A DNA stretch of 64,000 nucleotides, from assembly GCA_050186575.1 (NCBI GenBank), contig JBFWYI010000006.1, positions 35,130-99,129 of the forward strand, written 5' to 3'. Within the stretch, counting starts at the first letter, position 1. Every line of letters starts with the position of its first letter. Of the stretch, positions 3,991-30,716 are shown in pieces. The stretch is from Sandaracinaceae bacterium. GTDB taxonomy: Bacteria > Myxococcota_A > Polyangia > Polyangiales > Sandaracinaceae. A program made the translations under genes and the position numbers. Under the pieces are notes generated by a model. The model was not told where the DNA came from. It ran no database searches and saw nothing but the letters and a program-made list of their open reading frames with translations.

Positions 3991-4167
3991 CACCGCGACC
4001 CCGCCGGAACCGCGCGGCGATGGTTGAAAAGTGTGTGACTCCGGCCGTCTGCCTTGCGCGGGGTGCCGAGTCGCCCTACGAAGCGGGCGCTGTCCGAAGG
4101 TCGGCCAGCCCCGGAAACCGCACCTCCGATGTCGAGCCACGCCCGAACGACCCCGGCGCGCCGCCCG

Positions 4168-6997: not shown

Positions 6998-9900
6998 GCG
7001 GGCCCGAGCCGACCGGCGGGAACGACCCCGCCGCCGACGAGCGCGGCGCGGGCGCGCACGGCGGCGACGAGCGCGGCGCGGGCGCGCACGGCGCCGACGA
7101 GCACGGCGCCGACGAGCATGGCGCCGACGAGCATGGCGCCGACGAGCACGGCGCGGACGAGCAGGGCGGCGCGCCGGGGGTCTTCGCCGGCCCGCTCGCG
7201 TGGATGGCGAAGAACTCGGTCGCCGCCAACGTGCTCATGCTCCTGCTCATCATCGGGGGCCTCTTCTCGATCACTAGGATCAAGCAAGAGGTCTTCCCCG
7301 AGTTCGATCTCGACATGATCGTGATCAACGTGCCCTACCCCGGCGCGTCGCCCGAGGAGGTCGAGCAGGGCGTGATCCTCCCCATCGAGGAGTCGGTCCG
7401 CGCGATCGACGGGATCAGCGAGGTGCGCTCCACCGCGTCCGAGGGCGTGGGCGTCGTGGTGATGGAGCTCCTGGTCGGCGAGGACCCTGACCGCGTGCTC
7501 GCGGACGTGAAGAGCGCGGTCGACCGCATCACGAGCTTCCCTACCGACGTCGAAGAGCCGGTGGTGAGCCGGCCCCAGTTCCGCGGCGAGGTCATCTCCG
7601 TCGTCATCTACGGGGACGCGAGCGAGGCGGCGCTCCGCACACTCGGAGAGCGGACGCGCGACGGGCTGCTCGACGACGATGGGATCACCACCGTCGAGCT
7701 GAGCGGCGTCCGACCGCTCGAGATCGCGATCGATATCCCGCAAGATAACCTGCGTGCCTACGGCATGTCGCACAGCGACGTAGCCAACGCGATCCGCGCG
7801 GCGTCGCTCGACGTCCCGGCCGGCAACCTCCGCACCGCGGCCGGCGAGGTGCTGCTGCGCACCACGGAGCGCCGCGAGATCGGCGCCGAGTTCGAGAACA
7901 TCGTCGTGCGAATGCAGCCCGACGGGTCGCGCGTGACGGTCGGGGACCTCGGCGAGGTGACCGACGGCTTCCGCGAGGTCGACACGGCGGCGTCCTACGA
8001 GGGACAGCGCGCGGTGATGGTCAACGTGTTCCGGGTGGGCAACCAGACCCCGCTCGACATCGCGGCCAAGGTCCAAGACTACATCGCGGCGCACGAGGCG
8101 GACCTCCCGCCCGGCGTGCACTTCGCCACGTGGAACGACCGCTCGGAGTTCTATCGCGGCCGCATCGATCTGCTCGTCCGCAACGCGTACCTCGGGCTCA
8201 TCCTCGTCCTCGTGTGCCTCGGGCTGTTCCTCGAGATCCGACTCGCGTTCTGGGTGACGCTCGGCATCCCGATCTCGTTCATCGGCTCGCTCATCTTCCT
8301 GCCGACGATCGAGGGCGCGTCGATCAACATGATCTCGCTCTTCGCGTTCATCCTCACCCTAGGGATGGTCGTCGACGACGCGATCGTGGTCGGCGAGGCG
8401 GTCTACACGCGCCGCACCAAGGGCGTGCCCGCGATGCGCGCCGCGATCGAGGGCGTCAAGGAGGTTGGCGGCCCCGTCGTCTTCGCGATCCTCACGACCT
8501 GCATCTTCTTCATCCCGCTCCTCCTCGTGCCGGGCGTGATGGGGAAGTTCTTCATGCAGATCCCGATCGTCGTGATCCTGGTGCTGCTCCTCTCGCTCGG
8601 CGAGTCGCTCCTCGTCCTGCCCTCGCACCTCGGCCACCTCGACGCGACCAAGTGGTGGATCTGGGGGATCGTGGTGCTCAACGGCGCCTCGATCCCGGTC
8701 GTGTATCGCTTCAAGGGCGAGGTCTACTTCGCGCAGCTCTTCATCGAGGGCGTCTGCGTGCTCCTCCTGATCGCCGTGTACTGGAAGCCGGTGCACGCGG
8801 CGCAGCAGCGAGTCAGCCGCCTCATCGAGTGGTTGATCCAGAAGACCTACGCGCCGGTCCTCTCGCGCGCGGTCCGCAGCCGCTACATCACACTCGCGGC
8901 CGCGGTCGCGCTGTTCATCGGCGGCATCGGCATCGTCGCGGGCGGCCGCGTCGAGTGGGAGTTCTTCCCGAAGATCGACAGCGACATCGTGTCGGCGCGC
9001 ATCACCATGCCGTTCGGTACGCCGGCCGCGGTGACCGAGCAGGTGCAGCGACGCGCGCTGGACGCCTCGCACGCGGCGATCGCTCGACTGCAGCCGGACA
9101 CCGGCGAGTCGGTGGTGCGCGGGCGCTTCGCGCTGCTCGGGAGCTTCGGCGCGGCGGGCGGCGGGCCCGGGGGCAGCAACTCCGCGTCGGGCGGTCACGT
9201 CGCCGAGGTCGCGATGTTCCTCCAGCCTTCGGATCAGCGGGCATTCAGCGCACGCCAACTTGCGGAGACCTGGCGCGAGATCCTCGGCGACGTGCCGGGC
9301 GTCGAGTCGCTCCAGTTCCAGTCCGACACCGGCGGCCCGAGCGGATCCGACATCGACTTCCAGCTCAGCCACCCCGATCTTCCGACGCTCGAGCGCGCCG
9401 CCGCGGTGCTCGCCGACCGCCTGCGCGAGTACTCGGGCGTCCGCGAGATCAACGACGGCTTCGCCGAAGGCAAGGAGCAGCTCGACTTCGAGCTCCGGCC
9501 CGAGGCGCGCGCCCGCGGGATCACCGAGCAGATGCTCGCGCGTCAGCTCCGCGACGCGTTCTTCGGCGCCGAAGCGGTCCGCCAGCAGCGCGGTCGCGAC
9601 GAGCTGCGGGTCTACGTGCGGCGACCGCTCTCGGAGCGACAGTCGTTGGCCGACGTCGAGAGCATGCTGATCCGCACGCCGGACGGCGGCGAGATCCCGC
9701 TCAGCGAGGCGGCGGTGATCACGCGCGGCCGGAGCTACACGCAGATCCAGCGGCTGGACGGACGCCGCCGCGTCAACGTGACGGCCGGGGTCGACTTCGG
9801 CACGAACGCGAACCGCGTGCAGGGCGAGGTGCAGGAACAGGTGATCCCCGACCTGCTTCGGCAGTTCCCGAACCTGCGCGTCGAAGCGGGAGGCAACGCG

Positions 9901-10524
9901 AAGCGCCAGGGCGAGACGATGGTCGCGCTCGGTTACGGCTTCTTGATGGCGTTCCTCGCGATGTACGCGCTCCTCGCGATCGCGTTCAAGAGCTACGTCC
10001 AGCCGTTCATCATCGCGTCCGCGATCCCGTTCGGTTTCGTCGGCGCGGTGCTCGGTCACGCGGTCCTCGGCTATCGCTTCAGCCTCATGAGCATGATGGG
10101 CCTCGTCGCGCTCGCCGGCGTCGTGGTCAACGACTCGCTCGTCTACGTGAGCGCGGTGAACGACATCCGGCGCGACGAGCCGAACCTCTCGCTCGTCGAG
10201 GCGGTGTCCCTCGCCGGCGTGCGCCGCTTCCGCGCGATCCTGCTCACCTCGTTGACGACCTTCCTCGGGCTGACCCCGATGATCCTCGAGACGTCGGTCG
10301 GCGCGCGCTTCCTCATCCCGATGGCGATCAGCCTCGGGGTCGGCGTGATGTTCGCGACGTTCATCACCCTGCTCCTCGTGCCCTCGCTCTACCTCATCGT
10401 CGAGGACGTGGTCCGCACGGTGACGCGGGTCTCCGGGTTCGTGGTCGCCGGGATCCGGGGGCGCCGGCCGGTCGAGTCACCTCCCGGCGCGCCGACCGAG
10501 GACGCGCCTACCCACGCCGAGTAG
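6994..10524 (+). CDS. RND efflux permease (AcrB/CzcA superfamily), 12 TM, with an unusual His/Asp/Glu-rich N-terminal tail
   Basis: The 1176-aa ORF is colinear with AcrB. The TM4 motif is 'LGMVVDDAIVVGEAV' and two large periplasmic loops are present. The first about 60 aa are (GADEH)n low complexity encoded by 15-bp tandem repeats. Confidence 0.85.
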   Translation: MSGPEPTGGNDPAADERGAGAHGGDERGAGAHGADEHGADEHGADEHGADEHGADEQGGAPGVFAGPLAWMAKNSVAANVLMLLLIIGGLFSITRIKQEVFPEFDLDMIVINVPYPGASPEEVEQGVILPIEESVRAIDGISEVRSTASEGVGVVVMELLVGEDPDRVLADVKSAVDRITSFPTDVEEPVVSRPQFRGEVISVVIYGDASEAALRTLGERTRDGLLDDDGITTVELSGVRPLEIAIDIPQDNLRAYGMSHSDVANAIRAASLDVPAGNLRTAAGEVLLRTTERREIGAEFENIVVRMQPDGSRVTVGDLGEVTDGFREVDTAASYEGQRAVMVNVFRVGNQTPLDIAAKVQDYIAAHEADLPPGVHFATWNDRSEFYRGRIDLLVRNAYLGLILVLVCLGLFLEIRLAFWVTLGIPISFIGSLIFLPTIEGASINMISLFAFILTLGMVVDDAIVVGEAVYTRRTKGVPAMRAAIEGVKEVGGPVVFAILTTCIFFIPLLLVPGVMGKFFMQIPIVVILVLLLSLGESLLVLPSHLGHLDATKWWIWGIVVLNGASIPVVYRFKGEVYFAQLFIEGVCVLLLIAVYWKPVHAAQQRVSRLIEWLIQKTYAPVLSRAVRSRYITLAAAVALFIGGIGIVAGGRVEWEFFPKIDSDIVSARITMPFGTPAAVTEQVQRRALDASHAAIARLQPDTGESVVRGRFALLGSFGAAGGGPGGSNSASGGHVAEVAMFLQPSDQRAFSARQLAETWREILGDVPGVESLQFQSDTGGPSGSDIDFQLSHPDLPTLERAAAVLADRLREYSGVREINDGFAEGKEQLDFELRPEARARGITEQMLARQLRDAFFGAEAVRQQRGRDELRVYVRRPLSERQSLADVESMLIRTPDGGEIPLSEAAVITRGRSYTQIQRLDGRRRVNVTAGVDFGTNANRVQGEVQEQVIPDLLRQFPNLRVEAGGNAKRQGETMVALGYGFLMAFLAMYALLAIAFKSYVQPFIIASAIPFGFVGAVLGHAVLGYRFSLMSMMGLVALAGVVVNDSLVYVSAVNDIRRDEPNLSLVEAVSLAGVRRFRAILLTSLTTFLGLTPMILETSVGARFLIPMAISLGVGVMFATFITLLLVPSLYLIVEDVVRTVTRVSGFVVAGIRGRRPVESPPGAPTEDAPTHAE
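7036..7166 (+). repeat. In-frame coding tandem repeats: 2 x 30 bp followed by 5 x 15 bp ('GACGAGCAYGGCGCS'), encoding ...ERGAGAHGGD... then (ADEHG)5
   Basis: Read directly in the RND N-terminal coding region. Confidence 0.7.
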
Positions 10525-18497: not shown

Positions 18498-19718
18498 TCA
18501 GTCGGTGCGAGCCGGCAACCGCGGCAGCAGGCCTTCGAGCAAGGAAGACGGGATCCGCGTCGCGACCACGGGCGCCTCGTCTGCGGTGCGCCACGGCACG
18601 TCGGGCCACCAGCGCTCGACCTCGGGCGGCGCCGCCGGCTCGACGCTCTCGCCCGGGCGCGGCACCACCGCGCGCACGTGCGCTTCCTCGGCGGCCGCGA
18701 GCACCCGCTCCGCCGGCTCCGTCCAGCTGTGGTACGCGAGGTTGAACAGGCCCCAGTGCACGGGGATGAGCACGTCGCCGCGCACGAGCTGATGCGCCAG
18801 TACCGCTTGCTCGGGACCGAGGTGCCAGTCCGGCCACGCGGAGTCGTACGCGCCGGACTCGATCATCGTCACGTCGAACGGCCCGAACCGCTCGCCGATC
18901 TCCGCCATCGCGGGGAAGAGCCCGGTGTCCCCCGAGTAGAACGCGCGGTGATTCGGTCCGATCAACGCGAAGCCCGCCCACAGCGTCGCGTCCTTGTCGA
19001 TGCCGGTCCGCCCCGACGCGTGCCGCGCCGGCGTACACACCACCGTCAAGCTTTCATGCTCGACGCGATCCCACCAGTCCACGTCGACGATGTGCTCCTC
19101 GTCGACGCCCCAGTACGCGAGGTGCGCGCCGACACCGAGCGGCGCCACGAACGTCGTCTCCCACTCGCGCATCCGCTGGATGGTCGGGTAGTCGAGGTGG
19201 TCGTAGTGGTCGTGCGAGATGAGCACCAGATCGATGGGCGGCAGCTGATCGAGCACGATCGGCGTCGGATAGAACCGCTCCGGCCCCGCCCACGTGAACG
19301 GGGACGTCCGTTCCCCGAACACCGGATCGGTGAGCACCGTGTAGCCGTCGATCTCGATCACGAGGATCGAGTGCCCGAGCCAGGTCACCCGCAGCCCGCT
19401 CGCCGGCGGCGCGCCGAACCGAGACCGATCCCCCGGCACCGTCGCGATCGGCGCGTTCGGCGATCCGTACGCGCTCGCGTTCATCACCCCGGTGATCATC
19501 GCGCCCCAGTCGTTGTAGAGCGGCTCCGGGTTCACGAAGCTCGACTCGCCCTCCGACCAATGCGGTGACGCGTCCATCCGTTCCCGCCGCGCGCCGTCGG
19601 CCGCCTGACCGAACGCGCGCCAGCCGTCGATCAACGCGAACGTGGCCAACGCGAGCACCGCGAGCGCGAGGACGCCGAGGACGCGGAGGACGATCCGTCG
19701 GCGGCGCGAGCGCTCCAC
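18498..19718 (-). CDS. MBL-fold metallo-hydrolase with an N-terminal membrane anchor (NAPE-PLD / Zn-dependent hydrolase-like)
   Basis: N-terminal TM 'IVLRVLGVLALAVLALATFALI'. The 'VLISHDHYDHLD' HxHxDH motif is present. It lies immediately downstream of a TetR gene on the same strand. Confidence 0.75.
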   Translation of the reverse strand: MERSRRRRIVLRVLGVLALAVLALATFALIDGWRAFGQAADGARRERMDASPHWSEGESSFVNPEPLYNDWGAMITGVMNASAYGSPNAPIATVPGDRSRFGAPPASGLRVTWLGHSILVIEIDGYTVLTDPVFGERTSPFTWAGPERFYPTPIVLDQLPPIDLVLISHDHYDHLDYPTIQRMREWETTFVAPLGVGAHLAYWGVDEEHIVDVDWWDRVEHESLTVVCTPARHASGRTGIDKDATLWAGFALIGPNHRAFYSGDTGLFPAMAEIGERFGPFDVTMIESGAYDSAWPDWHLGPEQAVLAHQLVRGDVLIPVHWGLFNLAYHSWTEPAERVLAAAEEAHVRAVVPRPGESVEPAAPPEVERWWPDVPWRTADEAPVVATRIPSSLLEGLLPRLPARTD

Positions 19719-19720
19719 GC

Positions 19721-20437
19721 CTACTCCGACGCGTCGCGGTGAGCCTTCGCCGCCGCCATGAGCACCTGGGCGAACATGTCGACCACGACGTCGCCCATCT
19801 CATCGACGGAGTAATCGACCTTGTCGAAGCCGGCGCCGAGGGGACCGTCGACGATAAGGGCGCTGAGGCCGTGGGTGACCGACCACGCGAGGAGGACGTA
19901 CGCGTGCAAGGGTCCTTGCGGGACGAAGCCGTTCGCCTGGCCGGCCGCGATGTTGGTGACCAGCGTCTGGAAGACGGGCTCGGAGGCGGCGTGCAGCTCG
20001 GGGAAGGCCTCGGGGTCGGCGAGCTCAGGGCGGAACATGACGCGGAAGTGCGCCGGATGTTTGCGCGCGAACCGGACGTAGGCGCCGCCGCACGCGGTGA
20101 GGCGCGGGGCGCCGATCGCGGCATCGCGCACGGCGTCGTTCATCTCGGCGCCGAGCAGACGGAAGCCGTCCGTCGCGATGGCGGCGAGCAGGGCGCCGCG
20201 ATTCGGGAAATGATGATACGGAGCCGCCGCGCTCACGCCGGCGCGCTTGGCCGCCTGGCGGAGCGAGAGCGCCTGGACGCCGCCCTCCTCGATGAGGGCG
20301 AGGCTGGCCTCGATGAGGGCGGTCCGGAGGTCGCCGTGGTGATACCCGGGCTTCTCGGCTGCTTCGTGCTCGGCCACGTCGGTCCCCAGCATAGCTGCCG
20401 GATCGATCTGAACATCGCTCATTTTGGCTGTTGACAT
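19721..20437 (-). CDS. TetR/AcrR family transcriptional repressor
   Basis: N-terminal HTH 'ALSLRQAAKRAGVSAAAPYHHFPNRGALLAAI' is followed by a helical ligand-binding domain. It is divergent from an MFP-RND efflux operon. Confidence 0.8.
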   Translation of the reverse strand: MSTAKMSDVQIDPAAMLGTDVAEHEAAEKPGYHHGDLRTALIEASLALIEEGGVQALSLRQAAKRAGVSAAAPYHHFPNRGALLAAIATDGFRLLGAEMNDAVRDAAIGAPRLTACGGAYVRFARKHPAHFRVMFRPELADPEAFPELHAASEPVFQTLVTNIAAGQANGFVPQGPLHAYVLLAWSVTHGLSALIVDGPLGAGFDKVDYSVDEMGDVVVDMFAQVLMAAAKAHRDASE

Positions 20438-20492
20438 CCCTGGGCCGGAAACTAAACAGTGCTCAGTCCGACATCTAAACACTGTTCAGACA
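20431..20492. promoter_or_regulatory. Divergent promoter/operator region: TTGACA-N15-TAAACA sigma-70-like promoter toward the efflux operon, overlapping direct/inverted repeats 'CTAAACAGTG'...'CTAAACACTG' (candidate TetR operator)
   Basis: Read directly: TTGACAtccctgggccggaaaCTAAACAGTGctcagtccgacatCTAAACACTGttcaga. The CAGTG/CACTG cores are mutual reverse complements. Confidence 0.35.
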
Positions 20493-20493
20493 C

Positions 20494-21666
20494 ATGTCCA
20501 GGGAGATGGCGATGGCGAAGACATGGGCGAGGCTCGGCGGGTGGAGCCTGGTGGCGCTGGGGCTGGGGCTGGGCGCGTGGCTGGCGCGCCGCGACGCGCG
20601 GGCCGACGACGAGGCCGCGACGGGGGCGGTGCCGAGCATGCGGGTCGAGCTCGAGACGGTGGGGATCGCGGCGGTGCGCTCCCGGCACGTCGCGCACGGG
20701 GTCACGCGACCGACCGACCGGGCGATGCTCTCGTTCGCCGAGGGCGGCCGGGTCGTCGCGCGGCCCATCCAGGTGGGCCAGCGCGTCCGCGCCGGCGAGG
20801 TCGTCGCGCGGCTGGACCCCGCGCCGTATCGCAACGCGGTCCGCGCGGCGAGCGCGAGCCGGCGCGAGCTCGAGCTGAGGAGCGAGCAGCTCGGGCGCGA
20901 TCGCGATCGTGCGGAGCGGCTCGCGCACGAAGGGGTGACGACCGACGCGCGGCTCGAAGAAGCGGTCAGCGGGTACGACCGGGTCGAGGCCCTCCACGCG
21001 GCGGCGAGCGCACAGCTCCGTGAGTCGCAGCGTCGCAGCCGGGAAGGTGTATTGCGCGCGCCCTTCGACGGGGTGGTGACCGACGCGCTGGTCGAGGTCG
21101 GCGAGCTCGTCTCCCCCGGGCAACCGCTCGTGCGCCTCGCCGGCGAAGGTGGGCAGGAGGTCCTGCTCGAGGTGCCGGCCGAGCTCGCGGGTGGGCTCAT
21201 CGTCGGCGCGTCCGTCGCGATGCGCGCGGTCGGCTACGAAGCGGACGATCCGCTCGCGAGGACGCCGCTGGAAGGGACGATCCGCAGCGTCGCCGACCGC
21301 GCGGCCAGCGTGTCGGGGCTCTATCCGGTGATCATCGACGTCACGACCCCGAGCGCGCGAGCCGGGCTCGCGGTCGAGGTCGCGCTCGACGGCATTGAGC
21401 ACGATGTGTTGCAGGTGCCGCTGAGCGCGGTGCTCGATCCGTCGGGCTCGCGGCCGTTCGTGTGGCGCGCGCGCGACGGGCGGGCGGAGCGCGCCTGGAT
21501 CCGCCTCGGCCGCCTGGACGCGGATCGCGTCGAGGTGCGCGAAGGGCTCGCGGTGGGCGACCGGGTCGTGGTGCGCGGGCTGCATCGCCTCCTCGAGGGC
21601 GACGAGCTCGCGGCGGGCGATCCGGCGACGGACGATGCGCGCGCCTCGGTCGGAGGTGCGCGATGA
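20494..21666 (+). CDS. RND efflux periplasmic adaptor (membrane fusion protein)
   Basis: N-terminal anchor 'WSLVALGLGLGAWLA'. MFP lipoyl/beta-barrel motifs 'VVARLDP...GVLRAPFDGVV' are present. Alternative starts at 20506 and 20512 follow GGGAG. The stop overlaps the downstream ATG as ATGA. Confidence 0.8.
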   Translation: MSREMAMAKTWARLGGWSLVALGLGLGAWLARRDARADDEAATGAVPSMRVELETVGIAAVRSRHVAHGVTRPTDRAMLSFAEGGRVVARPIQVGQRVRAGEVVARLDPAPYRNAVRAASASRRELELRSEQLGRDRDRAERLAHEGVTTDARLEEAVSGYDRVEALHAAASAQLRESQRRSREGVLRAPFDGVVTDALVEVGELVSPGQPLVRLAGEGGQEVLLEVPAELAGGLIVGASVAMRAVGYEADDPLARTPLEGTIRSVADRAASVSGLYPVIIDVTTPSARAGLAVEVALDGIEHDVLQVPLSAVLDPSGSRPFVWRARDGRAERAWIRLGRLDADRVEVREGLAVGDRVVVRGLHRLLEGDELAAGDPATDDARASVGGAR

Positions 21667-24600
21667 TCGGTCGCCTCACGGAGCTGCTCGTCGCGCGACC
21701 GCGGCTCACGCTGGGCCTCGCGCTCCTCCTGAGCGCGGCGGGCCTCGTGTCGTGGTTCACGATGGCGCGCGAGGAGGACCCGCGGCTCACCCAGCGGATC
21801 GGGCTCCTCGTTGTCCCCTTCCCTGGCGCCGACGCGGCGCGCGTCGAGCGGCTCGCGGTGCGCCCGATCGAGGACGAGCTGGCCGAGGTCGACGAGGTCG
21901 TCGAGACGCGCGCGACGATCCGCGCGTCGGTGGCGGTGCTCAACCTCGAGCTGCGCCGCGACGTGACGGACACCGACACGGCGTGGGATCGTGTCGAGGA
22001 GGCGATCGCGCGCGCGCGCCTCGAGATGCCGGAAGGTGTTTTGACGCCGAGCCTCGACCACGATCTCGTCGAGACGGAGTCGGTGCTGGTGGCGATCACC
22101 GGATCGGGCGACGTGCTCGAGCTCGCCGACGCGGCCGACGCGCTGCGCGACCGGCTCCTCCGCGTCGACGACGTGTCGGAGGTGGTGCGGAGCGGCGATC
22201 CCGGTGAGCAGGTCGTGGTGCTCTACGACGACGCGACGGCCCGCCGCCTCGGGCTGCCCGCGGAGCGGCTCGCCGAGCTGCTCGCCGCGCGCAACGTGAC
22301 GATCCCCGGCGGCGCGATCCGCGTCGACGACCGCCGGGTCGAGCTGCGTCCGCGGGCCGAGCTCGAGACGGTCGAGGAGCTCGCGCGCACGCCGATCCTC
22401 CTCGCGTCCGGTGCCGCGGTGCCGCTCGGATCGATCGCGGAGGTCCGTCGCGCACCCGCCGAGCCGCGCCTCGAGCGCGCGCGCCTCGACGGCGCCCCCA
22501 CGGTGGTCCTCGGGGTGATCCCGCGCGACGCGATCGACGCGGTCGCGTTCGGCGAGGATGTCCGCGCGGTGCTCGCCGAGTACCGCACCGAACACCCGCA
22601 ATGGACACTGACGGAGATCGCGTACCAGCCCGACAAGGTGTCGGGGCGGCTCGGTGAGCTCGGGCTCTCGCTCCTCCTCGGCGTAGGGATCGTGCTCCTC
22701 GTCCTCTTCCTCACGATGGGGCCGCGCCTCGGCGTGGTGGTCGGCTCGGTGGTCCCGCTCGTCACGTTCGCGAGCCTCGCGATCTACGCGGCGGGCGGCG
22801 GCGTGCTGCACCAGATGGCGGTCGCTGCGCTCGTCCTCGCGCTCGGGCTCTTGGTCGACAACGCGATCGTGATGGCCGAGGCGATCCAACATCGCCTCGA
22901 CGCGGGCGCGAGCCGCGCCGAGGCGATGCGCGGCGCGGTCTCCGAGCTCGCGATCCCGCTCGCGTCGGCGACCGCCACCACCCTCGCGTCGTTCGTCCCG
23001 ATGCTCCTCGCGCCGGGGACGACCGGCGACTTCACGCGCGCGATCCCGATCGTCGTGATGATCACGCTCAGCGCGAGCTACGTGTATGCGCTCGTCGTAA
23101 CGCCGCTCGTCGGCGGGTTCCTGCTGCGGCCCCGCGCGTCGAGCGGCGACGGCTGGGTCGAGCGCGCGGCGCGGTGGATCGCGCAGCGCTCGGTGAAGCG
23201 GCCCGGGTTGACGCTCGCAGCGGTCGGCCTCGTGGTCGGCGGCGCCGGCGCGTTCGCCACGATCGTCCAGAAGGACTTCTTTCCATCCTCCGATCGCGAG
23301 CAGCTCGTGGTGAGCGTCGAGCTCCCCGAGGGCGCGCACCTCGACGCGACGGACGACGCCTCGCGCCGGCTCGAGCGCGCGCTCTCGGAGCGGCGCGAGG
23401 TCGTGAGCGTGGCCGCGTTCGTCGGCCGGAGCGCGCCGTCGTTCTACTACAACCTCCCGCGCGCCCCGCGCTCGCCCCACCTCGCGCACGTCGTGGTGAC
23501 CACCCGGAGCGCGGCCGACGTCGGCGCGATCCGCACGTTCGTCCGCGCGTGGTCGGCGCGCGAGCTACCGGACGCGACCGTGGTGCCGCGCCGCCTCGAG
23601 CAGGGCCCGCCGGTGCCCGCGCCGATCGAGGTGCGCCTCTTGGGCGACGACCTCGCCGACCTCCACCTCGCCGCTGAACAGGTGCAACGCGTGTTGCGCG
23701 AGGATCCGCGCGCCGCCGACGTCCGCACGACGCAGGGACCCGGCGTCCCCACCCTCGGCTTCGCGATCGACGACGCGGTGGCCGGCCGTCGCGGCGTCGC
23801 GCGCGCCCAGATCGCGAGCGCGATGCTCGGGCGCACCGAGGGGCTGCGCGCGGGGAGCTACCGCGGCGGCGAGGACCCCGTGCCGATCGTGGTGCGCGCG
23901 TCGGCCGGGGATGCGCACGCGCCCGAGCAGCTCGACGCCATCGATCTCGTGAGCGCGGCGGGCTGGACACCGCTCGGCGCGGTGACCACGCGCGACCTCT
24001 CGTTCGGGCCCGCCGTGATCCAGCATCGCGACGGTCGTCGCGTCGTGTCGGTGCTCGCCGAGGTGGAGGACGGCTCGACCTACGCACAGATCATCGCCGA
24101 CGCGCGCCCTCGCCTCGAGGCGCTGGAGCTACCGAGCGGCGTGTCGTTCGTCCTCGGCGGCGCCACCGAGTCGTCCGCCAAAGCGAACGACGCGCTCGCG
24201 AGTCGGGCGTGGCTCGGCGCGCTCCTCCTCGTCGTGGTCCTCATCGCGCAGTTCGAGTCGCTCCGTCGCGTCGCCATCGTGCTCGTGACCGCGCCGCTCG
24301 CCGCGCTCGGGATCTGGCCAGGGCTCTTCGCGCTCGATCTCCCGTTCGGGTTCGTCGCGCTGCTCGGCGCCATCGCGCTGATCGGGATCGCGGTCAACGC
24401 CGCCATCGTGCTGCTCGATCTGACCGAGAGCCTGCGCGCCGAGGGCGCCTCGATCGCGGCCGCGCTCGAGGCGGCGGTGACGCGCCGCACCCGACCGATC
24501 CTGCTCACCACCGTGACGACGATCGCGGGGCTCGTCCCGCTGCTCTTCAGCGAGTCCACGCTCTGGCCGCCGATGGCCGCCGCCATGATCAGCGGCCTGA

Positions 24601-26156
24601 CCGTCGCGACCGCCCTCACGTTGTTCGCGGTGCCCGCGCTCTATCGGCTGCTGTTCCGCGATCCCAAGCCGACCGAGGCGCGACCCCTTCCGTTGACCGC
24701 CCTCGGCTCGGCGGCGGCGGCGATGTTCGCGCTGAGCCTGATCGGCTCGACCCCCGCGTTCGCGCAGACCGACGCGCCGGAGCCGGCCGAAGACATGCAA
24801 GCCCTCTTGCAAGGGGAGCCCGAGGGGATGACGGTCGACGACGTGCGCGCCCGCGCGCTCGAGGTCTCGCCTTCGCTCGACGCGCAGCGCGCCGCGATCC
24901 GCGCCGCGGAGGCCCGCGTCCCCGAGGCGTGGGCCGCCATCCTCCCCCAGGTGCAGGTCGGCGGCCGCTACACGCGCCTCTCCGAGATCGAGAACGACCC
25001 GCTGGTGAGCGGCATCGATCCGAGCGGCGCGCAGGCGCTGGTGGCGGGCGTCGATGATCCGGAGGCCCGCGCGCTCTGGGAGTCGACCCTCACCCAGCAG
25101 CAGGCGCTCGCGCAGCGGGCGATCCCGTTCTACCCGAACCAGCTCGCGTTCGACGCGACGATCCAACTTCCGCTGAGCGAGCTGTTCCTCACGCTGGTGC
25201 CGCGCCTCGAGGCCGCGGACGCGGGCGTCGACGCCGCGCGCTCGGCGGAGCGTGCCGTGCAACATGCGTTGCGACTTCGATCCGCGGAGGCGTTCTACGC
25301 GGTCGCGCGAGCGCGCGCGTACTCGGCGCTCGCCGCGCAGCGGGTGATCGACGTCGAGGAGCAGGCGCGCCTCGCGCGGGTGGCCGAGCGCGAGGGCGCC
25401 GCGCTCCTCAGCGAGCGCCTGCGGGCCGAAGCGCAGCTCGCGCGCGCCCGGTCCGCGTCGATCCTGGCGCAGGCGAGGCTCGCGGCGGGAGAGGAGGCGC
25501 TCCGCGCGCTCCTCCACCTCGAGCCCACGACCCCGCTCTCGCTCGCCACGCTCGACGCGCCGCCCTCCCGTCCCCCCGCGAGCCTGGCGGCGCTGACCGC
25601 GCGTGCGATCGAGCGACGACCCGAGACCGAGGCGCTGCGCGATGCGATGCGCGCGAGCGATCGCACGCAGCAGGCGGCGGAGGGCGCGCGGTGGCCGGTG
25701 CTCCGCGTCGCGTTCGGCGCCCAGCTCGCGAACCCGAACCCGCGCTTCGTCCCGCAGCACGATCGCTTCGATCCGACGTGGGACCTCTCGGTGATCCTCG
25801 GCTGGTCGCCAAACCAGACGATCGCGGCCGACGCGCAGGCGAGCCGGGCGAGCGCCGAGACGGCGCGGCTGCGCGCCGACCTCGAATCATTGCACGATAC
25901 GTTGCGCATCGAGGTCGCCAGCGCGTATGCGGATCGTCGCATCGCCGACGCGCAACGCGACGAAGCCGACGCGGCCCTCCGCGCCGCGGCCGAGGCCTAT
26001 CGCGCGCGGCAGCGCGAGCGGGAGGCCGGCTCGGCGAACACCGCTGCGCTCCTCGACGCGGAGACGGAGCTCGCGGCGGCGCGGTTCGCGTGGATCGACG
26101 CCGCGATCTTCCTGCACCTCGCCGAGGCCAGGCTCGGCTACGCGGCGGGGGAGTAG
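21663..26156 (+). CDS. Fused RND permease + outer-membrane-factor (TolC-like) protein: 1497 aa, a single uninterrupted frame
   Basis: Residues 1 to about 1020 are a complete AcrB-like RND pump (12 TM, motif 'LGLLVDNAIVMAEA'). Without any stop the frame continues: 'LYRLLFRDPKPTEARPLP' then 'LTALGSAAAAMFALSLIGSTPAFAQT', which looks like a signal peptide or a 13th TM. Then comes a complete OMF domain (about 470 aa) with two TolC repeats: 'VDDVRARALEVSPSLDAQRAAIRAAEARV...' and '...AEAFYAVARARAYSALAAQRVIDVEEQ'. An internal in-frame ATG lies at 24723. Confidence 0.75.
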   Translation: MIGRLTELLVARPRLTLGLALLLSAAGLVSWFTMAREEDPRLTQRIGLLVVPFPGADAARVERLAVRPIEDELAEVDEVVETRATIRASVAVLNLELRRDVTDTDTAWDRVEEAIARARLEMPEGVLTPSLDHDLVETESVLVAITGSGDVLELADAADALRDRLLRVDDVSEVVRSGDPGEQVVVLYDDATARRLGLPAERLAELLAARNVTIPGGAIRVDDRRVELRPRAELETVEELARTPILLASGAAVPLGSIAEVRRAPAEPRLERARLDGAPTVVLGVIPRDAIDAVAFGEDVRAVLAEYRTEHPQWTLTEIAYQPDKVSGRLGELGLSLLLGVGIVLLVLFLTMGPRLGVVVGSVVPLVTFASLAIYAAGGGVLHQMAVAALVLALGLLVDNAIVMAEAIQHRLDAGASRAEAMRGAVSELAIPLASATATTLASFVPMLLAPGTTGDFTRAIPIVVMITLSASYVYALVVTPLVGGFLLRPRASSGDGWVERAARWIAQRSVKRPGLTLAAVGLVVGGAGAFATIVQKDFFPSSDREQLVVSVELPEGAHLDATDDASRRLERALSERREVVSVAAFVGRSAPSFYYNLPRAPRSPHLAHVVVTTRSAADVGAIRTFVRAWSARELPDATVVPRRLEQGPPVPAPIEVRLLGDDLADLHLAAEQVQRVLREDPRAADVRTTQGPGVPTLGFAIDDAVAGRRGVARAQIASAMLGRTEGLRAGSYRGGEDPVPIVVRASAGDAHAPEQLDAIDLVSAAGWTPLGAVTTRDLSFGPAVIQHRDGRRVVSVLAEVEDGSTYAQIIADARPRLEALELPSGVSFVLGGATESSAKANDALASRAWLGALLLVVVLIAQFESLRRVAIVLVTAPLAALGIWPGLFALDLPFGFVALLGAIALIGIAVNAAIVLLDLTESLRAEGASIAAALEAAVTRRTRPILLTTVTTIAGLVPLLFSESTLWPPMAAAMISGLTVATALTLFAVPALYRLLFRDPKPTEARPLPLTALGSAAAAMFALSLIGSTPAFAQTDAPEPAEDMQALLQGEPEGMTVDDVRARALEVSPSLDAQRAAIRAAEARVPEAWAAILPQVQVGGRYTRLSEIENDPLVSGIDPSGAQALVAGVDDPEARALWESTLTQQQALAQRAIPFYPNQLAFDATIQLPLSELFLTLVPRLEAADAGVDAARSAERAVQHALRLRSAEAFYAVARARAYSALAAQRVIDVEEQARLARVAEREGAALLSERLRAEAQLARARSASILAQARLAAGEEALRALLHLEPTTPLSLATLDAPPSRPPASLAALTARAIERRPETEALRDAMRASDRTQQAAEGARWPVLRVAFGAQLANPNPRFVPQHDRFDPTWDLSVILGWSPNQTIAADAQASRASAETARLRADLESLHDTLRIEVASAYADRRIADAQRDEADAALRAAAEAYRARQREREAGSANTAALLDAETELAAARFAWIDAAIFLHLAEARLGYAAGE

Positions 26157-26213
26157 ACCTCCCGCGCGCCTCCCCCGAAGTCGCGCAGGACTCAGGATGC
26201 GGGGAGCGAGGAG

Positions 26214-26639
26214 TCAACCCGGCCAGGCCTCGCGCGCGCTCGGCGCGCGCTCAGGCGAAGTAGCGCCGCACCGAGCGATCGAGCAGCACCGCAGCGAGTA
26301 CATCGCCATCACGAAGTTCACCGCCACGCCGAGCCCGGCCAGGACGACGTTGAAGCTGGCCTGGTGATAGAGCGCGGCGAGCACCTGCCACGCCATGAAC
26401 GGCGCGATGATCGCGCCGAGCCCGCTCATGCCGATCATCACCGCGCGCGTCAGCCCGTTCCGCCGCTCGAGCGAGCGCCCGATGAGGAACGTCACCGCGA
26501 GCCAGAACGTGGTGACGAGGACGGTCACCATCAGCGAGATGGGCCCGATCCCGTTCATCAGGATCGAGCCGGCCCCGCCGGCCAGCGTGTAGAGGTACCA
26601 GGCGATCGTCAGCCCTTGGATCTTGTCGCGCGCCGTCAT
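26214..26639 (-). CDS. Small hypothetical membrane protein (141 aa, about 4 TM)
   Basis: ATG 26639 is preceded by a strong SD (RC ...GGGGGAGC-ATG). The sequence is hydrophobic: 'LTIAWYLYTLAGGAGSILMNGIGPISLMVTVLVTTFWLAVTFLIG'. It lies 45 nt downstream of the FHA sigma-54 activator on the same strand. The rest of the long ORF-track frame upstream is artefact. Confidence 0.5.
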   Translation of the reverse strand: MTARDKIQGLTIAWYLYTLAGGAGSILMNGIGPISLMVTVLVTTFWLAVTFLIGRSLERRNGLTRAVMIGMSGLGAIIAPFMAWQVLAALYHQASFNVVLAGLGVAVNFVMAMYSLRCCSIARCGATSPERAPSAREAWPG

Positions 26640-26683
26640 GCTCCCCCGTCGTACGGGGCGCGCCCGTTGGCCTTCCCTCTCGT

Positions 26684-28393
26684 CTACGCGAGATACCGAT
26701 AGAGGCTGCGAACGCTGATATCGAGCGCCGCGGCGGCCGCCTCGCGGTTGCCCTCGTGGCGGTCGAGGACGGCCGAGACGTAGCGGCTGACGAAGCGGTC
26801 GCGCGCCTCGGTGAGCGGGAGATCCAGCGGGCCGACGGGCTCGCCCTCGGCTCGCGCCGCCGCCTCGAGCTGCATGTGCTCGGGCTCGATCGCGCGACCA
26901 TCGCAGAGGATCGACGCGCGGCGCATCACCGCCCGCAGCTCGCGCACGTTGCCCTCCCACGCGTGCGCCAGGATCGCTCGCTCGCTCGCCGCCGACAGCT
27001 CGTGCGCGCCGATGCCGAGCGAGGTCTCGCACTGGCGGAGGAACAGGCGGGCGAGCAGCAAGACGTCCTCGCCGCGCGCGCGGAGCGGCGGCAGGTGCAC
27101 CGCGAGCTCGCGCAGCCGGTAGAGCAGATCCTTGCGGAAGCTTCCCGCCTCGACGGCGGCGTCGAGGTCCGCGCTCGTCGCCGCGACGAGCCGAAAGTCG
27201 ACGCGGCGCTCCTCGTTCTCGCCGACGCGGGTGACCGCGCGCTCCTCGAGCACGCGCAACAACGCGACTTGCATCGATAGAGGCATGTCGCCGACCTCGT
27301 CGAGGAACAGCGTCGAGCCCTCCGCCGCTTCGATGCGGCCCATCCGATCCGTCACCGCGCCGGTGTACGCGCCCTTCTTGCAGCCGAAGAGCTCCACCGC
27401 GAGCAGCGACTCCGGCACCGCCGCGCAGTTCAACGCGACCATCGGCCGCTCGGCGCGCGGGCTCTGCCGATGGATCGCGCGCGCCGCGACCTCCTTGCCG
27501 GTCCCCGTCTCCCCGAGGATGAGCACGCTGAGATCGCTCGGCGCGACGCGACGCACGAGCTCGCGCACGCGGATCATCGCCTCGGACTCCCCGACCATCG
27601 GATCGTCGGCCGACGGCCCCGTCATCGCGGCGCGACGGCGGAGCTGCTCGAGGAGCGGCAGCGCCATCGTCGCGAGCAACCCGAGGTCGTGCGCCTGCGC
27701 ATCGCTGAAGCGACCACGCGCGTCCCTGTGGCCGAGGTAGAGCGCGCCGAGCACGCGCGACCCCATCCGCATCGGGACGCAGAGCACACTTCGGAGTGAC
27801 AACGAGACGACCGATGGTACGGAGCGATACCGCGGGCTGGCGCTCAGATCCGTGACGCACACGCTCGCCGCGTCGCCGGCGAGGACGTCCATCACCACCG
27901 TGTCGCTGAGGAGCTCCTCCGCGCGCTCGAGCGGTCGGCCCTCGGCGTCCCGCGCGATCGGGATCGCGTAGCCGTCGGCGTCGCGCAGCACCACCGCGCC
28001 GGTCGCCGCGCCGGTCGCACGGACGAGGCCCGCGACCAACGCAGCCAGCGCGTCGGAAGGCTGGTCGGCCGCGGCGAGCGCCTCGGCGAGCGCTTCGAGG
28101 GGGAGCCCGTCCGTCGCGGTCGCCCTGGAGGCGTCGCGAAGCGCGAGGCTCACGCCGTCCACCTCGAGCGCTCCGCCGAGCGGGATCACGCGCGCGCCGC
28201 CGACGCCGATCTGGCGGAGCTCGAGGCCCGCGTCGACGCGGCGCAGGATCGCCCAGCGCTCGCTGAGGCTCGCGATGCGCACGTCGGCGGCCGGATCCGA
28301 GCCGATCGAGAGGAGCGCGCGATCGATGCGGCGCTGGACGGGCTCGAGGCCGGCCACCCGGATCTCGAGGATCCACCCGTCGCCCGCGGCCAT
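26684..28393 (-). CDS. Sigma-54-dependent transcriptional activator with N-terminal FHA domain and GAF domain (FHA-GAF-AAA+-HTH)
   Basis: FHA-like N-terminus 'ILEIRVAGLEP...LSIGSDPAADVRIASLSERWAILRRVDAGLELRQIG'. A GAF region follows. Walker A 'GETGTGKEV', 'GAYTGA' and the C-terminal HTH 'AAAALDISVRSLYRYL' are present. Confidence 0.85.
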   Translation of the reverse strand: MAAGDGWILEIRVAGLEPVQRRIDRALLSIGSDPAADVRIASLSERWAILRRVDAGLELRQIGVGGARVIPLGGALEVDGVSLALRDASRATATDGLPLEALAEALAAADQPSDALAALVAGLVRATGAATGAVVLRDADGYAIPIARDAEGRPLERAEELLSDTVVMDVLAGDAASVCVTDLSASPRYRSVPSVVSLSLRSVLCVPMRMGSRVLGALYLGHRDARGRFSDAQAHDLGLLATMALPLLEQLRRRAAMTGPSADDPMVGESEAMIRVRELVRRVAPSDLSVLILGETGTGKEVAARAIHRQSPRAERPMVALNCAAVPESLLAVELFGCKKGAYTGAVTDRMGRIEAAEGSTLFLDEVGDMPLSMQVALLRVLEERAVTRVGENEERRVDFRLVAATSADLDAAVEAGSFRKDLLYRLRELAVHLPPLRARGEDVLLLARLFLRQCETSLGIGAHELSAASERAILAHAWEGNVRELRAVMRRASILCDGRAIEPEHMQLEAAARAEGEPVGPLDLPLTEARDRFVSRYVSAVLDRHEGNREAAAAALDISVRSLYRYLA

Positions 28394-28418
28394 CGGTGCC
28401 GAGGATATCAAGGAGCGC

Positions 28419-30716
28419 TCACCGCGGGACGCCGTCGGCGTCGAGGCGGCCGCAGGAACGCAGATCGCCGAGACGGCACGCGGTCCGGAGGTCATCGTAG
28501 GCGCCGCGCTCGTCGCCCGAGCGGCCGCGGAGGATCGCGCGGTTCGCGTACATGCGCGGCACCTCGGGCGCGAGGGCGACCGCGCGATCCGCGTCCGCCA
28601 CCGCGGTGGCGTTCTCCCCGCGCCGCGCCCGATCCACCGCGCGCGCGAGGTAGAGCTCCGGGTTCTCCGGCATCACTTCGATCGCGAGGTCGCACGCCTC
28701 CTCGACGCCGGGTCGCTGCCGACGGCTGAGCAGCGTGCACCTGAGCGCAAGTCCTTTTTCGTCGCGCGGGGACAGCTCGAGGCCGCGCTCGCACGCCGCG
28801 AACGCCTCGTCGATCTGTGCGGGCTCGTCGGACTCCGAGAGCGCGATCCCGAGCGACACCCACGCCGTCGCGTTGCGGGGGAAGCGCTCCACGAGACGGC
28901 GGAGGAACGGCACCGCGTCGAGGGTCCGGTGCGCGAGCTCGTAGACCTCCGTCATCTCGGCGAGCGCGTAGAGGTTGTCCGGATCGTCGTCGAGCACGCG
29001 CGCGAGATCGAGGTAGGCATCGCGCGTCTGCCCGCGGCGAGAGCGCAGCACGCCTCGGTGACGGAGCGCGTCGCGGTAGCGCGGGTCGATGTCGATCGCG
29101 CGCGTGAGGAGCTCGTCCGCGTCGTCGAAGCGACCCTGCCGCAGGGCGAGGAACCCGAGCGCCGTCAGGGCGCGCGGGCTGTCCGAGTGCGTGTTCTCGA
29201 GCGAGCGCGCAGCGACGAAGCCCTCATCGGTCCGGCCGAGCACGAAGAGCGCGAACATCCTCTCGACGAGCGCCTCGACGTCGCTCGGCTCGTCCTCGAG
29301 GCGGCGCGTCGCGGTGGCGAGGACGACGTTCGGGTCGCCGCCCACCGCTTCCGTCTCGACGAGCGGCTCCCCCGGCGCGGCGGCCACCCCCGACGGATCG
29401 GCGGGGTCGTCGTTGCTCAACACGTCGGGCGGGATGGGGTGATAGACGAGCGGCCGGACGCCCGCGTCGTCCGCGCCGCCGTCCTCGCGCGCCGCGTCGG
29501 TCACCCCGGCGTCGCGGGGCGCGTGAGCGCTCGTCTCAAGGCTCGCATCGCTCGACGTGGTGTCCGCATCGCGCGCGATGATCGTGACCGCACCGCCCGC
29601 GATCGCGAGCCCGACCAGACCCGCCGCCGCCCACGGCCAGCGCGGCCTCGGTCTCGACGCGGGCTCCGACGCCACGGCGGCATGGGTCTCCCCGGACGAC
29701 GCGCGCTCGACCAGCGCGAGGGTCTCCGCGTCGTCGGGCGCGTAGGCGAGCGCGCGATCCAACTTGCGGATCGCGTCGAGCGGCCGCCCCGAGTCGATCA
29801 GCGTGCGCGCCTCCCGCCGCAGCTGCTCGGTGACCCGCGCGCCGGCCTTCGCGGCGAACGCGGCCGCGTCGGTGATCACCGACACGCGGAGCGCGCGCGC
29901 CTCGCTCGCGGTACCGCTCATCCAGACCAGCAACCGCTCGAGGAGCGCCGCACCATCCCGCGGGCGCGCGGCCGGATCGGCGTCGAGGCACGCCGCGAGC
30001 AGCGCGTCGAGCTCCTCCGGTACGCGGCGATCGACCCCGCTCAAAGGAGCGAACGTGCCGCTGAGGATCGCCGCGACCTCCTCGCCGGCGCGCGCGCGCT
30101 CGAACGGACGGCGCCCCGTCACGAGCTCGTAGAGCATCACGCCGAACGCCCACACGTCCGCGCTCGGCGCGACGTCGCGTCCCTCGATGCGCTCGGGCGA
30201 CATGTAGGGGACCGACCCTGCGACCTCGCCCTCTCGGGTGTGTCGCGTGTCGGTCTCGGCGAGCGCGAGCCCGAGGTCGACGAGGGTCACATCGCCGAGC
30301 GGGCTGACCATGAGGTTCTCTGGCTTCACGTCGCGATGCACCAAGCCCTCGGCGTGCAACGCGGCGAGGGCATCCGCCAACGGCGCCAACAACACGAGCG
30401 CCGCCTCGGGACCGAGCGCCCGCCGGCCGAACAGATCGCGCAACGTCATGCCGCGCACGAGCGGCATCGCGAGCCACGGGCCGAGCGCTTCGTCGACGCC
30501 GTGATCGATCACGCGGATGAGGTGCGGGTGCTCGATGCGCTCGGCGATCCGGATCTCGCGCTCGAAGCGCGCCAGCTGCTCGGCCGACGCATCGCCGCCG
30601 CCGTGGAGCACCTTGATGGCGACGTCGCCCCCGTCCACGCGCGTCGCGCGGAACACCTGCGCCATCCCACCCTCCCCGATGGGCTCATGCAGCTCGTAGG
30701 GACCGACCGACGCCAT
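28419..30716 (-). CDS. Ser/Thr protein kinase (Hanks-type) with transmembrane segment and C-terminal TPR repeats
   Basis: Kinase subdomains are present: 'IGEGGMAQVFRA', 'VAIKVL', 'HRDVKPENLMV', 'DLGLA', 'GSVPYMSPE'. A TM helix 'WPWAAAGLVGLAIAGGAVTII' is followed by multiple TPR motifs. The stop lies 25 nt upstream of the FHA activator start. Confidence 0.85.
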   Translation of the reverse strand: MASVGPYELHEPIGEGGMAQVFRATRVDGGDVAIKVLHGGGDASAEQLARFEREIRIAERIEHPHLIRVIDHGVDEALGPWLAMPLVRGMTLRDLFGRRALGPEAALVLLAPLADALAALHAEGLVHRDVKPENLMVSPLGDVTLVDLGLALAETDTRHTREGEVAGSVPYMSPERIEGRDVAPSADVWAFGVMLYELVTGRRPFERARAGEEVAAILSGTFAPLSGVDRRVPEELDALLAACLDADPAARPRDGAALLERLLVWMSGTASEARALRVSVITDAAAFAAKAGARVTEQLRREARTLIDSGRPLDAIRKLDRALAYAPDDAETLALVERASSGETHAAVASEPASRPRPRWPWAAAGLVGLAIAGGAVTIIARDADTTSSDASLETSAHAPRDAGVTDAAREDGGADDAGVRPLVYHPIPPDVLSNDDPADPSGVAAAPGEPLVETEAVGGDPNVVLATATRRLEDEPSDVEALVERMFALFVLGRTDEGFVAARSLENTHSDSPRALTALGFLALRQGRFDDADELLTRAIDIDPRYRDALRHRGVLRSRRGQTRDAYLDLARVLDDDPDNLYALAEMTEVYELAHRTLDAVPFLRRLVERFPRNATAWVSLGIALSESDEPAQIDEAFAACERGLELSPRDEKGLALRCTLLSRRQRPGVEEACDLAIEVMPENPELYLARAVDRARRGENATAVADADRAVALAPEVPRMYANRAILRGRSGDERGAYDDLRTACRLGDLRSCGRLDADGVPR

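Follow-up and report, generated by a model that had tools for sequence, protein, structure and literature searches.

Organization of the locus

We analysed a window of 64,000 nucleotides (nt) from a metagenome-assembled genome of a Sandaracinaceae bacterium (contig JBFWYI010000006.1), an origin that bears out the Myxococcota guessed by a first-pass annotation; in this window a resistance-nodulation-division (RND) inner-membrane permease and a TolC-like outer-membrane factor (OMF) are encoded by one reading frame. All positions given here are those of the window, meaning this whole stretch of DNA. Translation of 21663-26156 (+) from ATG 21663 yielded 1497 amino acids (aa) with the sole stop codon at the end, and a scan of the open reading frames (ORFs) showed that the frame was stop-free over 21462-26156 (+). 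The peptides that the first-pass annotation had quoted from this product (FAVPALYRLLFRDPKPTEARPLP, LTALGSAAAAMFALSLIGSTPAFA and QT) were exactly present in it. The two in-frame start candidates to which that annotation had drawn attention were also found as described, the TTG at 24693 being codon 1011 and the ATG at 24723 codon 1021.

The gene of a periplasmic adaptor, or membrane fusion protein (MFP), lies immediately upstream, and its product exceeded the cut-off of the TIGR01730 RND_mfp model, which is 94.9 bits (Table 1). The MFP stop codon and the RND start share the sequence ATGA, and the cognate adaptor gene thus adjoins the RND gene. The RND start itself, ATG 21663, is preceded by GGAGGTG, whose pairing with the anti-Shine-Dalgarno sequence (-13.1 kcal/mol) corresponds to a strong Shine-Dalgarno (SD) signal. 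The slot upstream of the pump is occupied by a TetR-family gene, and it is likewise filled in the gene calls of the Logan contig described below and in L001, an orthologous locus where RND and OMF are split into two genes. The locus is a TetR-controlled MFP/RND::OMF efflux operon.

Table 1. Features of the efflux locus, in window positions; L001 and L006-L008 are related loci with separate RND and OMF genes (TM, transmembrane; AF2, AlphaFold2).
Feature	Position	Strand	Basis
TetR-family regulator, divergent from the pump operon	19721..20392	-	Pfam TetR_N + TetR_C_33
Periplasmic adaptor (MFP)	20494..21666	+	Pfam HlyD_3 + HlyD_D23; NCBIfam TIGR01730 RND_mfp, 193 bits
RND-signal peptide-OMF fusion, single 1497-codon ORF	21663..26156, stop codon 26154-26156	+	ORF + Pfam
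RND permease domain, MexK/TriC-like, 12 TM	21681..24653 (aa 7-997)	+	ACR_tran, MexK and TriC matches
Cytoplasmic basic tail after TM12, RLLFRDPKPTEAR	24645..24683 (aa 995-1007)	+	Read from the sequence
Gene-boundary relics: degraded SD GAGG (24676-24679) and TTGA (24693-24696)	24676..24696	+	DNA alignment with L001, L006-L008
Internal signal-peptide-like segment, PLPLTALGSAAAAMFALSLIGSTPAFA	24684..24764 (aa 1008-1034)	+	Homology to the L001 OMF signal peptide
Predicted mature OMF domain, modelled as a complete TolC-fold protomer	24765..26153 (aa 1035-1497)	+	Two OEP repeats, AF2 model

Both halves of the fusion are complete

The Pfam ACR_tran model matched residues 7-997 of the fusion with 459.6 bits, and the match ran over profile positions 3-1020 of 1021, that is, over its full length. 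Among solved RND pumps, MexK (9xwg) was the best match (396 bits, residues 13-1007), followed by TriC (6vej) at 335 bits. As the scores stayed under the NCBIfam subfamily cut-offs (357.8 versus 1250), the RND half is a divergent member of the family. A hydrophobicity scan recovered 11 segments of the RND part, at positions that fitted the end-to-end alignment with MexK; the 12th RND segment presumably fell under the cut-off of the scan, and a 13th segment was recovered at aa 1011. The nearly full profile match and the MexK alignment bear out the first-pass claim of a complete 12-TM permease, the C-terminus of which is cytoplasmic according to the established AcrB topology.

The proton relay departs from the classic pattern. 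AcrB relies on the triad D407/D408/K940, which is incomplete in the window protein, with D399-N400 in TM4 (22857-22862) and N912 in TM10 (24396-24398). N912 aligns with an Arg of MexK, at the position that we take to be equivalent to AcrB K940. The Asp-Asn pair in TM4 was present in 116 of 116 members of this RND family, fused and split alike. The family also has Asn at the TM10 position, and only one of the three classic relay residues is retained in it. These residues suggest that the family probably uses a variant proton relay or coupling mechanism; the change concerns mechanism and not the RND fold.

In the second half, Pfam identified two OEP stretches that reached residue 1496. The AF2 monomer model of residues 1035-1497 had a mean local confidence (pLDDT) of 90.1 and a predicted TM-score (pTM) of 0.79, and its elements are arranged as in canonical OMFs (H1-H2-S1-S2-H3-H4 / H5-H6-S4-S5-H7-H8). 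H1 spans mature residues 24-34, and a short additional helix precedes it at residues 7-16. Foldseek aligned the model with TolC, OprM, OprN and CusC at TM-scores of 0.65-0.72 over about 460 columns. Queried with the OMF half, phmmer found no PDB sequence at E <= 1e-3; a profile built from 12 sequences of this half did reach TolC and OprN. With the family-invariant residues present and the fold confidently modelled, the OMF half is intact, and the model describes it as a complete TolC-fold protomer.

A conserved insert of about 50 residues lies between strands S1 and S2 of the OMF (mature residues 72-124, window 24978-25136). Its N-D-P-x-V and D..A..L motifs are invariant, and two short helices are predicted in it (pLDDT 66-88). 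The insert is absent from E. coli TolC and might form an extracellular or lumenal lid.

The fused frame is shared by three assemblies

The DNA of the junction recurs unchanged in two other assemblies. A 6649-bp contig of a metagenome-assembled genome (GCA_050247775.1, contig JBFWTP010000516.1) corresponds to window 22417-29065 with a single mismatch (28984) and no gaps, and the Logan contig SRR27751815_44500, which derives from a per-run assembly, is 100% identical to window 18663-27311. The identical 1497-aa protein is encoded on the Logan contig and is also deposited at NCBI as MGE0785240.1, on a Sandaracinaceae contig of 187,887 bp. Since the junction DNA is the same in all three assemblies, it is not an assembly error, and we regard the fused ORF as very probably genuine. 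This agreement upholds the earlier view of a real in-frame RND-OMF fusion rather than a frameshift artefact.

Split relatives reveal a decayed gene boundary

Homologs P0002-P0006, the nearest to the window protein at 66-72% identity, consist of the RND part alone and are about 1005 aa long. At the P0002 locus, which is L001, the genes follow the order TetR(-), MFP, RND and OMF. The RND protein of L001 ends in LFRDPKPAEVVS followed by its stop codon, which the ATG of the OMF gene overlaps as TGATG, and the OMF begins with MQRSLSVLGAVIAPLWLAVSPAAA/QDAPDLEALLRGDGGE, where the slash marks the end of a signal peptide of 24 aa and the mature protein starts with QDAP. When counted from the window TTG 24693 and from the L001 ATG aligned with it, both signal peptides have 24 residues. 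This match in position and length agrees with the first-pass proposal that the joint contains what was once the OMF signal peptide. In six more split relatives (L006-L009, L012 and L013) the OMF gene also lies directly downstream of the RND gene. Stop and start overlapped in all five split loci examined as DNA (L001 and L006-L009), and the OMF of L013 starts a few codons past the stop. A comparison of orthologs for a stop codon between the RND and OMF parts found it in the split clade and not in many other homologs.

The split OMF genes have clear start signals. They begin with ATG, encode basic residues near the N-terminus of the signal peptide (MQRS, MTRI, MDRRTR and others) and show SD energies from -6.5 to -14 kcal/mol, with -10.5 to -14.0 kcal/mol in the four closest that were examined (L001, L006-L008). 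At the two candidate OMF starts of the window, TTG 24693 and ATG 24723, the energies were -5.9 and -5.6 kcal/mol, both inside the background of the ORF (mean -3.7, 5th percentile -8.9 kcal/mol). In the DNA alignment, CGAGG-N13-TTGA of the window stands opposite GGAGG-N7-ATGA of L006, and TTG 24693 aligns with the ATG of the orthologous OMF. The old stop codon is retained as TGA 24694-24696 and is out of frame because the spacer between SD and start exceeds that of L006 by about 7 nt, a net shift of +1. Three features of the OMF start have therefore decayed in the window: ATG has become TTG, GGAGG has become GAGG, and the basic residue after the start has been lost. This degradation of start codon, SD and basic N-terminus favours a fusion that is established and lacks a start of its own for the OMF. 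The first-pass annotation had reasoned in the same direction from the missing basic n-region after the internal Met, and the weak SD signals agree with it. The comparison points to an RND and OMF pair that was once translationally coupled by overlapping stop and start codons and is now read in one frame.

The fused architecture recurs across bacteria

The first-pass annotation presented the fusion as a singular oddity, which is not how it appears among its homologs: the architecture is recurrent, with over 100 divergent members. Dozens of proteins of 1430-1650 aa that carry both PF00873 and PF02321 came up in a full-length search, and a junction-spanning query against cluster representatives added about 60 more clusters of at least 1400 aa among the top 150 matches. 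We analysed 113 junction-spanning fused homologs, 102 of them full length, from Sandaracinus and other Myxococcota, Acidobacteriota, Thermoanaerobaculia and 'Deltaproteobacteria'. The DNA of loci L003, L004, L005 and L011 shows the fusion as well, and a partial fused protein from the junction-spanning search (P0121, 55% identical) carries the FAVPAL and LFRDP tail motifs of the window. The RND parts of the fused homologs are 45-62% identical and their OMF parts no more than 25-51%; given such low identity among fused proteins, the fused state has been kept over long times.

In a neighbour-joining (NJ) tree of the RND domain, built from the homologs of the full-length search, fused proteins fell into several clades and were interleaved with split ones, which indicates that fusion, fission or both happened repeatedly. 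The window protein is the sole fused member of its immediate clade, and from this position its fusion appears to have arisen inside a split clade, independently of the large fused clades. Three further searches were directed at closer relatives. A 201-aa junction query in a second large protein search gave short RND fragments only and no closer junction-spanning relative, the junction DNA pattern (exact or with variable gaps) was not found in JGI metagenomes, and seeding a metagenome scan with the protein brought up nothing closer than the relatives already found. These searches thus provided no intermediate genome (80-95% identity) by which to date the fusion.

The joint has the features of a cleavable signal peptide

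The joint of the window protein reads LFRDPKPTEARPLP-LTALGSAAAAMFALSLIGSTPAFA/QTDAPEPAEDMQALLQGEPEG. It consists of 27 uncharged residues (aa 1008-1034) preceded by K1001 and R1007, with Pro at -4 and Ala at -3 and -1 relative to a predicted signal peptidase I site, A-F-A/Q, between nt 24764 and 24765. The signal-peptide-like segment of the OMF is internal and not N-terminal. In the fusion, the basic tail that follows TM12, kept as LFRDPKP in the split orthologs, supplies the positive n-region of the hydrophobic segment. According to the AF2 model, 23 residues separate this segment from OMF helix H1, fewer than the linker of 30-40 aa given in the first-pass annotation. A lipoprotein site for signal peptidase II was also considered at the joint and rejected, since there is no Cys at +1, which makes the OMF TolC-like in this respect and not a lipoprotein.

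The same anatomy was found across the family. In 107 of 113 fused homologs, the motif VPALYxLLF at the end of TM12 was followed by an uncharged hydrophobic run, of 21 residues in the median. The 10 residues before the run had a net positive charge in 94 of these 107 proteins, a Met stood near the start of the run in only 18, and the usual end of the run was a small-x-small site, such as A-x-A, with Q, E or D after it. For a control comparison, one mechanical boundary rule (the first polar residue after the run) was applied to TM1, TM7 and the junction of the 102 full-length fused proteins. TM1 and TM7 are uncleaved, have the same N-in/C-out orientation and each precede a large periplasmic domain. 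Small residues at -3 and -1 were present in 68% of the junctions, compared with 10% of TM1 and 26% of TM7 segments; Ala at -1 in 47%, compared with 8% and 9%; and Pro or Gly at -4 to -7 in 78%, compared with 27% and 48%. Cleaved signal peptides differ from uncleaved signal anchors in their shorter hydrophobic region, whose length is the classical determinant between the two (PMC2120157). On a biological hydrophobicity scale, on which the argument for cleavage is not rested, the median insertion energy over 19 residues was +3.0 kcal/mol for the junctions, +0.1 for TM12 and +5.4 for stand-alone OMF signal peptides; the junctions are less hydrophobic than TM12 and stand between it and those signal peptides.

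Long low-complexity linkers occur on either side of the signal-peptide-like segment in some members, with about 70 residues in L011 (6238-8028) and about 300 in P0088; in such members an uncleaved tether would be physically possible.

A polyprotein probably cut by signal peptidase I

We propose that the fusion is a polyprotein that is cut by signal peptidase I to give a normal OMF and an RND permease with a 13th helix, and we assign this whole statement, including cleavage, a probability of about 0.6. The frame is open, both halves are complete, the internal start signals have decayed, the joint resembles a signal peptide and the architecture recurs. From the sequence we infer the export, the cleavage and the fate of the products, as follows. 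The ribosome would make a precursor of 1497 aa from ATG 21663, comprising RND, tail, signal peptide and OMF. The chain would be cytoplasmic after TM12, and the basic tail (R-R-K-R) together with the 27-residue segment would re-enter the Sec translocon in the N-in/C-out orientation, so that the OMF part of 463 residues would be exported via Sec like the RND's own periplasmic loops of about 300 residues. Signal peptidase I would then cut after A-F-A1034. The mature OMF, starting with QTDAPEP, would be released and reach the outer membrane by the usual chaperone and beta-barrel assembly machinery (BAM) route, while the RND would retain the signal peptide as its C-terminal 13th helix, and the pump would assemble as an ordinary tripartite RND-MFP-OMF machine. 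The fusion would replace translational coupling in providing 1:1 trimer partners at the same site. This outcome, cleavage at the retained AFA/Q site, was absent from the alternatives of the first-pass annotation, and we consider it the likeliest.

Several points weigh against this reading. Cleavage is inferred only, and about one third of the junctions fail the crude -3/-1 test under the mechanical boundary rule. The window joint has an insertion energy of +1.96 kcal/mol, inside the range of the protein's bona fide TM helices (-3.2 to +3.3 kcal/mol); as it overlaps its own weaker helices, hydrophobicity alone neither decides for nor excludes a stable anchor. Linkers of 50-300 residues in some clades (Sandaracinus P0008, P0011 and P0013; P0088) could span the periplasm. 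All other members of the window's clade in the NJ tree are split, and the window fusion is of more recent origin than the large fused clades and has stood a shorter test of evolution. Finally, the three assemblies possibly come from the same or related samples, in which case their agreement excludes assembler error and not every kind of error.

Two of these points, the TM-like hydrophobicity of the window joint and the few clades whose linkers of at least 50 residues are able to reach, would suit a permanently tethered pump, in which a stable 13th TM helix is never cleaved and the OMF is held covalently by the RND while it sits in the outer membrane. The continuous frame and the homotrimeric state of both partners fit it as well. 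Distances speak against it. The RND headpiece, judged from AcrB, extends roughly 70 Å. The OMF is 140 Å long, and its helix H1 lies in the equatorial belt, in the middle of the 100-Å alpha-barrel (PMC8277102, section 6.2). In the 33-nm pump, RND and OMF are not in contact and about 6 nm of adaptor lies between them (PMC4754349). By our own estimate (about 70 Å of headpiece, about 60 Å of adaptor and about 50 Å of half the alpha-barrel), the N-terminus of the OMF would stand about 180 Å above the inner membrane. The tether of 23 residues in the window would cover at most about 80 Å when extended, and part of it is predicted to be helical; many Acidobacteriota-type homologs have only 0-10 residues before the first OMF helix, as in LALPVAAA/DVTLAEAL. 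As the tether is shorter than the distance from RND to OMF, a tethered canonical pump is not feasible for most of the family. Moreover, the c-region of the joint resembles that of a signal peptide and differs from TM1 and TM7, which stay uncleaved in these proteins. Geometry and c-region together disfavour the outer-membrane channel held by a 13th TM helix that the first-pass annotation had preferred, and we consider such a pump unlikely. It is similarly doubtful that the fusion stays uncleaved at least in the long-linker lineages, as a covalently closed trans-envelope machine. If it did, a proton-driven inner-membrane pump and an outer-membrane beta-barrel channel would be joined in one polypeptide, which would need a novel assembly route for a tethered outer-membrane protein and would be a truly new envelope architecture.

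Another reading is that two products are made: a functional OMF from internal initiation at TTG 24693 or ATG 24723, and a read-through fusion as a tolerated by-product. The exact alignment of TTG 24693 with the OMF start of the split orthologs and the GAGG relic 13 nt upstream of it agree with this, but the SD complementarity at both starts does not rise above the ORF background. The signal peptide of a product from the TTG would lack basic residues, and in one from ATG 24723 only 14 residues would precede the site. So few of the fused homologs have a Met close to where the run begins that internal initiation is not conserved, and with no stop codon the full-length product is made anyway. Internal initiation as the source of the OMF therefore seems quite improbable.

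The least favoured reading is that a net +1 indel in 24672-24693, through recent and possibly deleterious damage or a consensus error, removed the stop and that the normal state is two genes. This tail contains a run of four C at 24684-24687; with one base less, the RND would end at TGA 24694-24696, overlapping the TTG start as TTGA, and the split state of the remaining clade is what this reading predicts. Against it, the three assemblies agree, one of them from an independent per-run assembler, the OMF half is intact and the fused state is viable in more than 100 other lineages. The joint also differs from the split orthologs by the TTG, the GAGG, the longer spacer and the lost n-region Arg, and divergence in several features is the pattern expected after, not at, a fusion event. 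We consider recent damage or error very unlikely, and a one-base homopolymer error as the sole explanation was rejected, as these differences are independent of one another.

Neighbouring genes and a second efflux operon

The start of the MFP gene is uncertain, since ATG 20494 has no SD complementarity (+0.4 kcal/mol) and the Logan gene call begins 18 nt further on, at 20512. Next to the TetR regulator, a metallo-beta-lactamase-fold protein is encoded at 18663-19718 (-). Downstream of the pump and convergent with it lies the gene of a sigma-54-dependent activator (GAF-AAA-HTH) at 26684-28393 (-), and between this gene and the pump there is a 141-aa ORF with no Pfam match.

The window contains a second efflux operon, which the first-pass annotation had placed at 4168-10524 with OMF, MFP and RND genes. 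Pfam bore out the MFP and the RND; the ORF at 4020-5642 (+), taken as the OMF, had no Pfam match at E <= 1e-3. The RND of this operon (6994-10524, +) is unusually long (1176 aa), and its ACR_tran match falls into two stretches, which suggests an insertion.

Comparison with known systems

Canonical tripartite RND operons such as MexJK/TriABC-OpmH, AcrAB-TolC and MexAB-OprM have the same parts in the same order as the window locus: TetR, MFP, a 12-TM RND and a TolC-fold OMF. The closest relatives of the window gene belong to exactly this kind of split MFP-RND-OMF operon. Compared with them, the window has RND and OMF in one polypeptide, Asp-Asn in TM4, Asn at the TM10 position and the insert between S1 and S2 of the OMF. 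To our knowledge, tripartite efflux pumps have always been described as three separate proteins, and the matching of inner- and outer-membrane partner numbers is usually left to operon structure. The literature that we searched held no description or experimental study of natural RND-OMF fusions. One article treats both Pfam families, but as separate genes (PMC6592562).

Uncharacterised proteins with ACR_tran and OEP do exist in the databases, among them MCB9612081.1 (Sandaracinus sp.), MDA8019993.1 (Thermoanaerobaculia) and RLE25281.1 (Acidobacteria), and a JGI label for such proteins reads 'multidrug efflux pump subunit AcrB/outer membrane protein TolC'. They share with the window the layout of RND, basic tail, signal-peptide-like segment and OMF, and differ from it in belonging to other clades, at 41-51% full-length identity. 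Annotation pipelines label fusions of 1450-1540 aa only as 'RND permease' or 'TolC family protein', and with such generic labels the OMF counts and pump inventories of Myxococcota and Acidobacteriota are slightly wrong. The natural fusion of RND and OMF has arisen repeatedly and has been kept over long evolutionary distances.

The nearest parallel to the proposed polyprotein is FbcH, the cytochrome b-c1 precursor of Bradyrhizobium japonicum, which was reportedly found by Thony-Meyer et al. in 1991 to be cleaved at an internal signal-peptidase site into two subunits in a 1:1 ratio. FbcH and the window protein share a polytopic protein with a cytoplasmic C-terminus, an internal signal peptide and a periplasm-facing partner of the same complex, and the layout of the window sequence is consistent with a membrane polyprotein of the FbcH type. 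The two differ in that they belong to unrelated families and that the released partner of the window would have to go on to the outer membrane; cleavage is said to be proven for FbcH, whereas for the window we propose it. If the fusion is cleaved as proposed, it would be the second bacterial case, after cytochrome b-c1, in which an internal signal peptide fixes envelope subunits at 1:1, and the first to release an outer-membrane beta-barrel, with the RND left carrying an extra C-terminal helix. Altogether, the components of this pump are ordinary, and what sets it apart from the canonical systems is the covalent RND-OMF arrangement, which lies in the databases under generic names.

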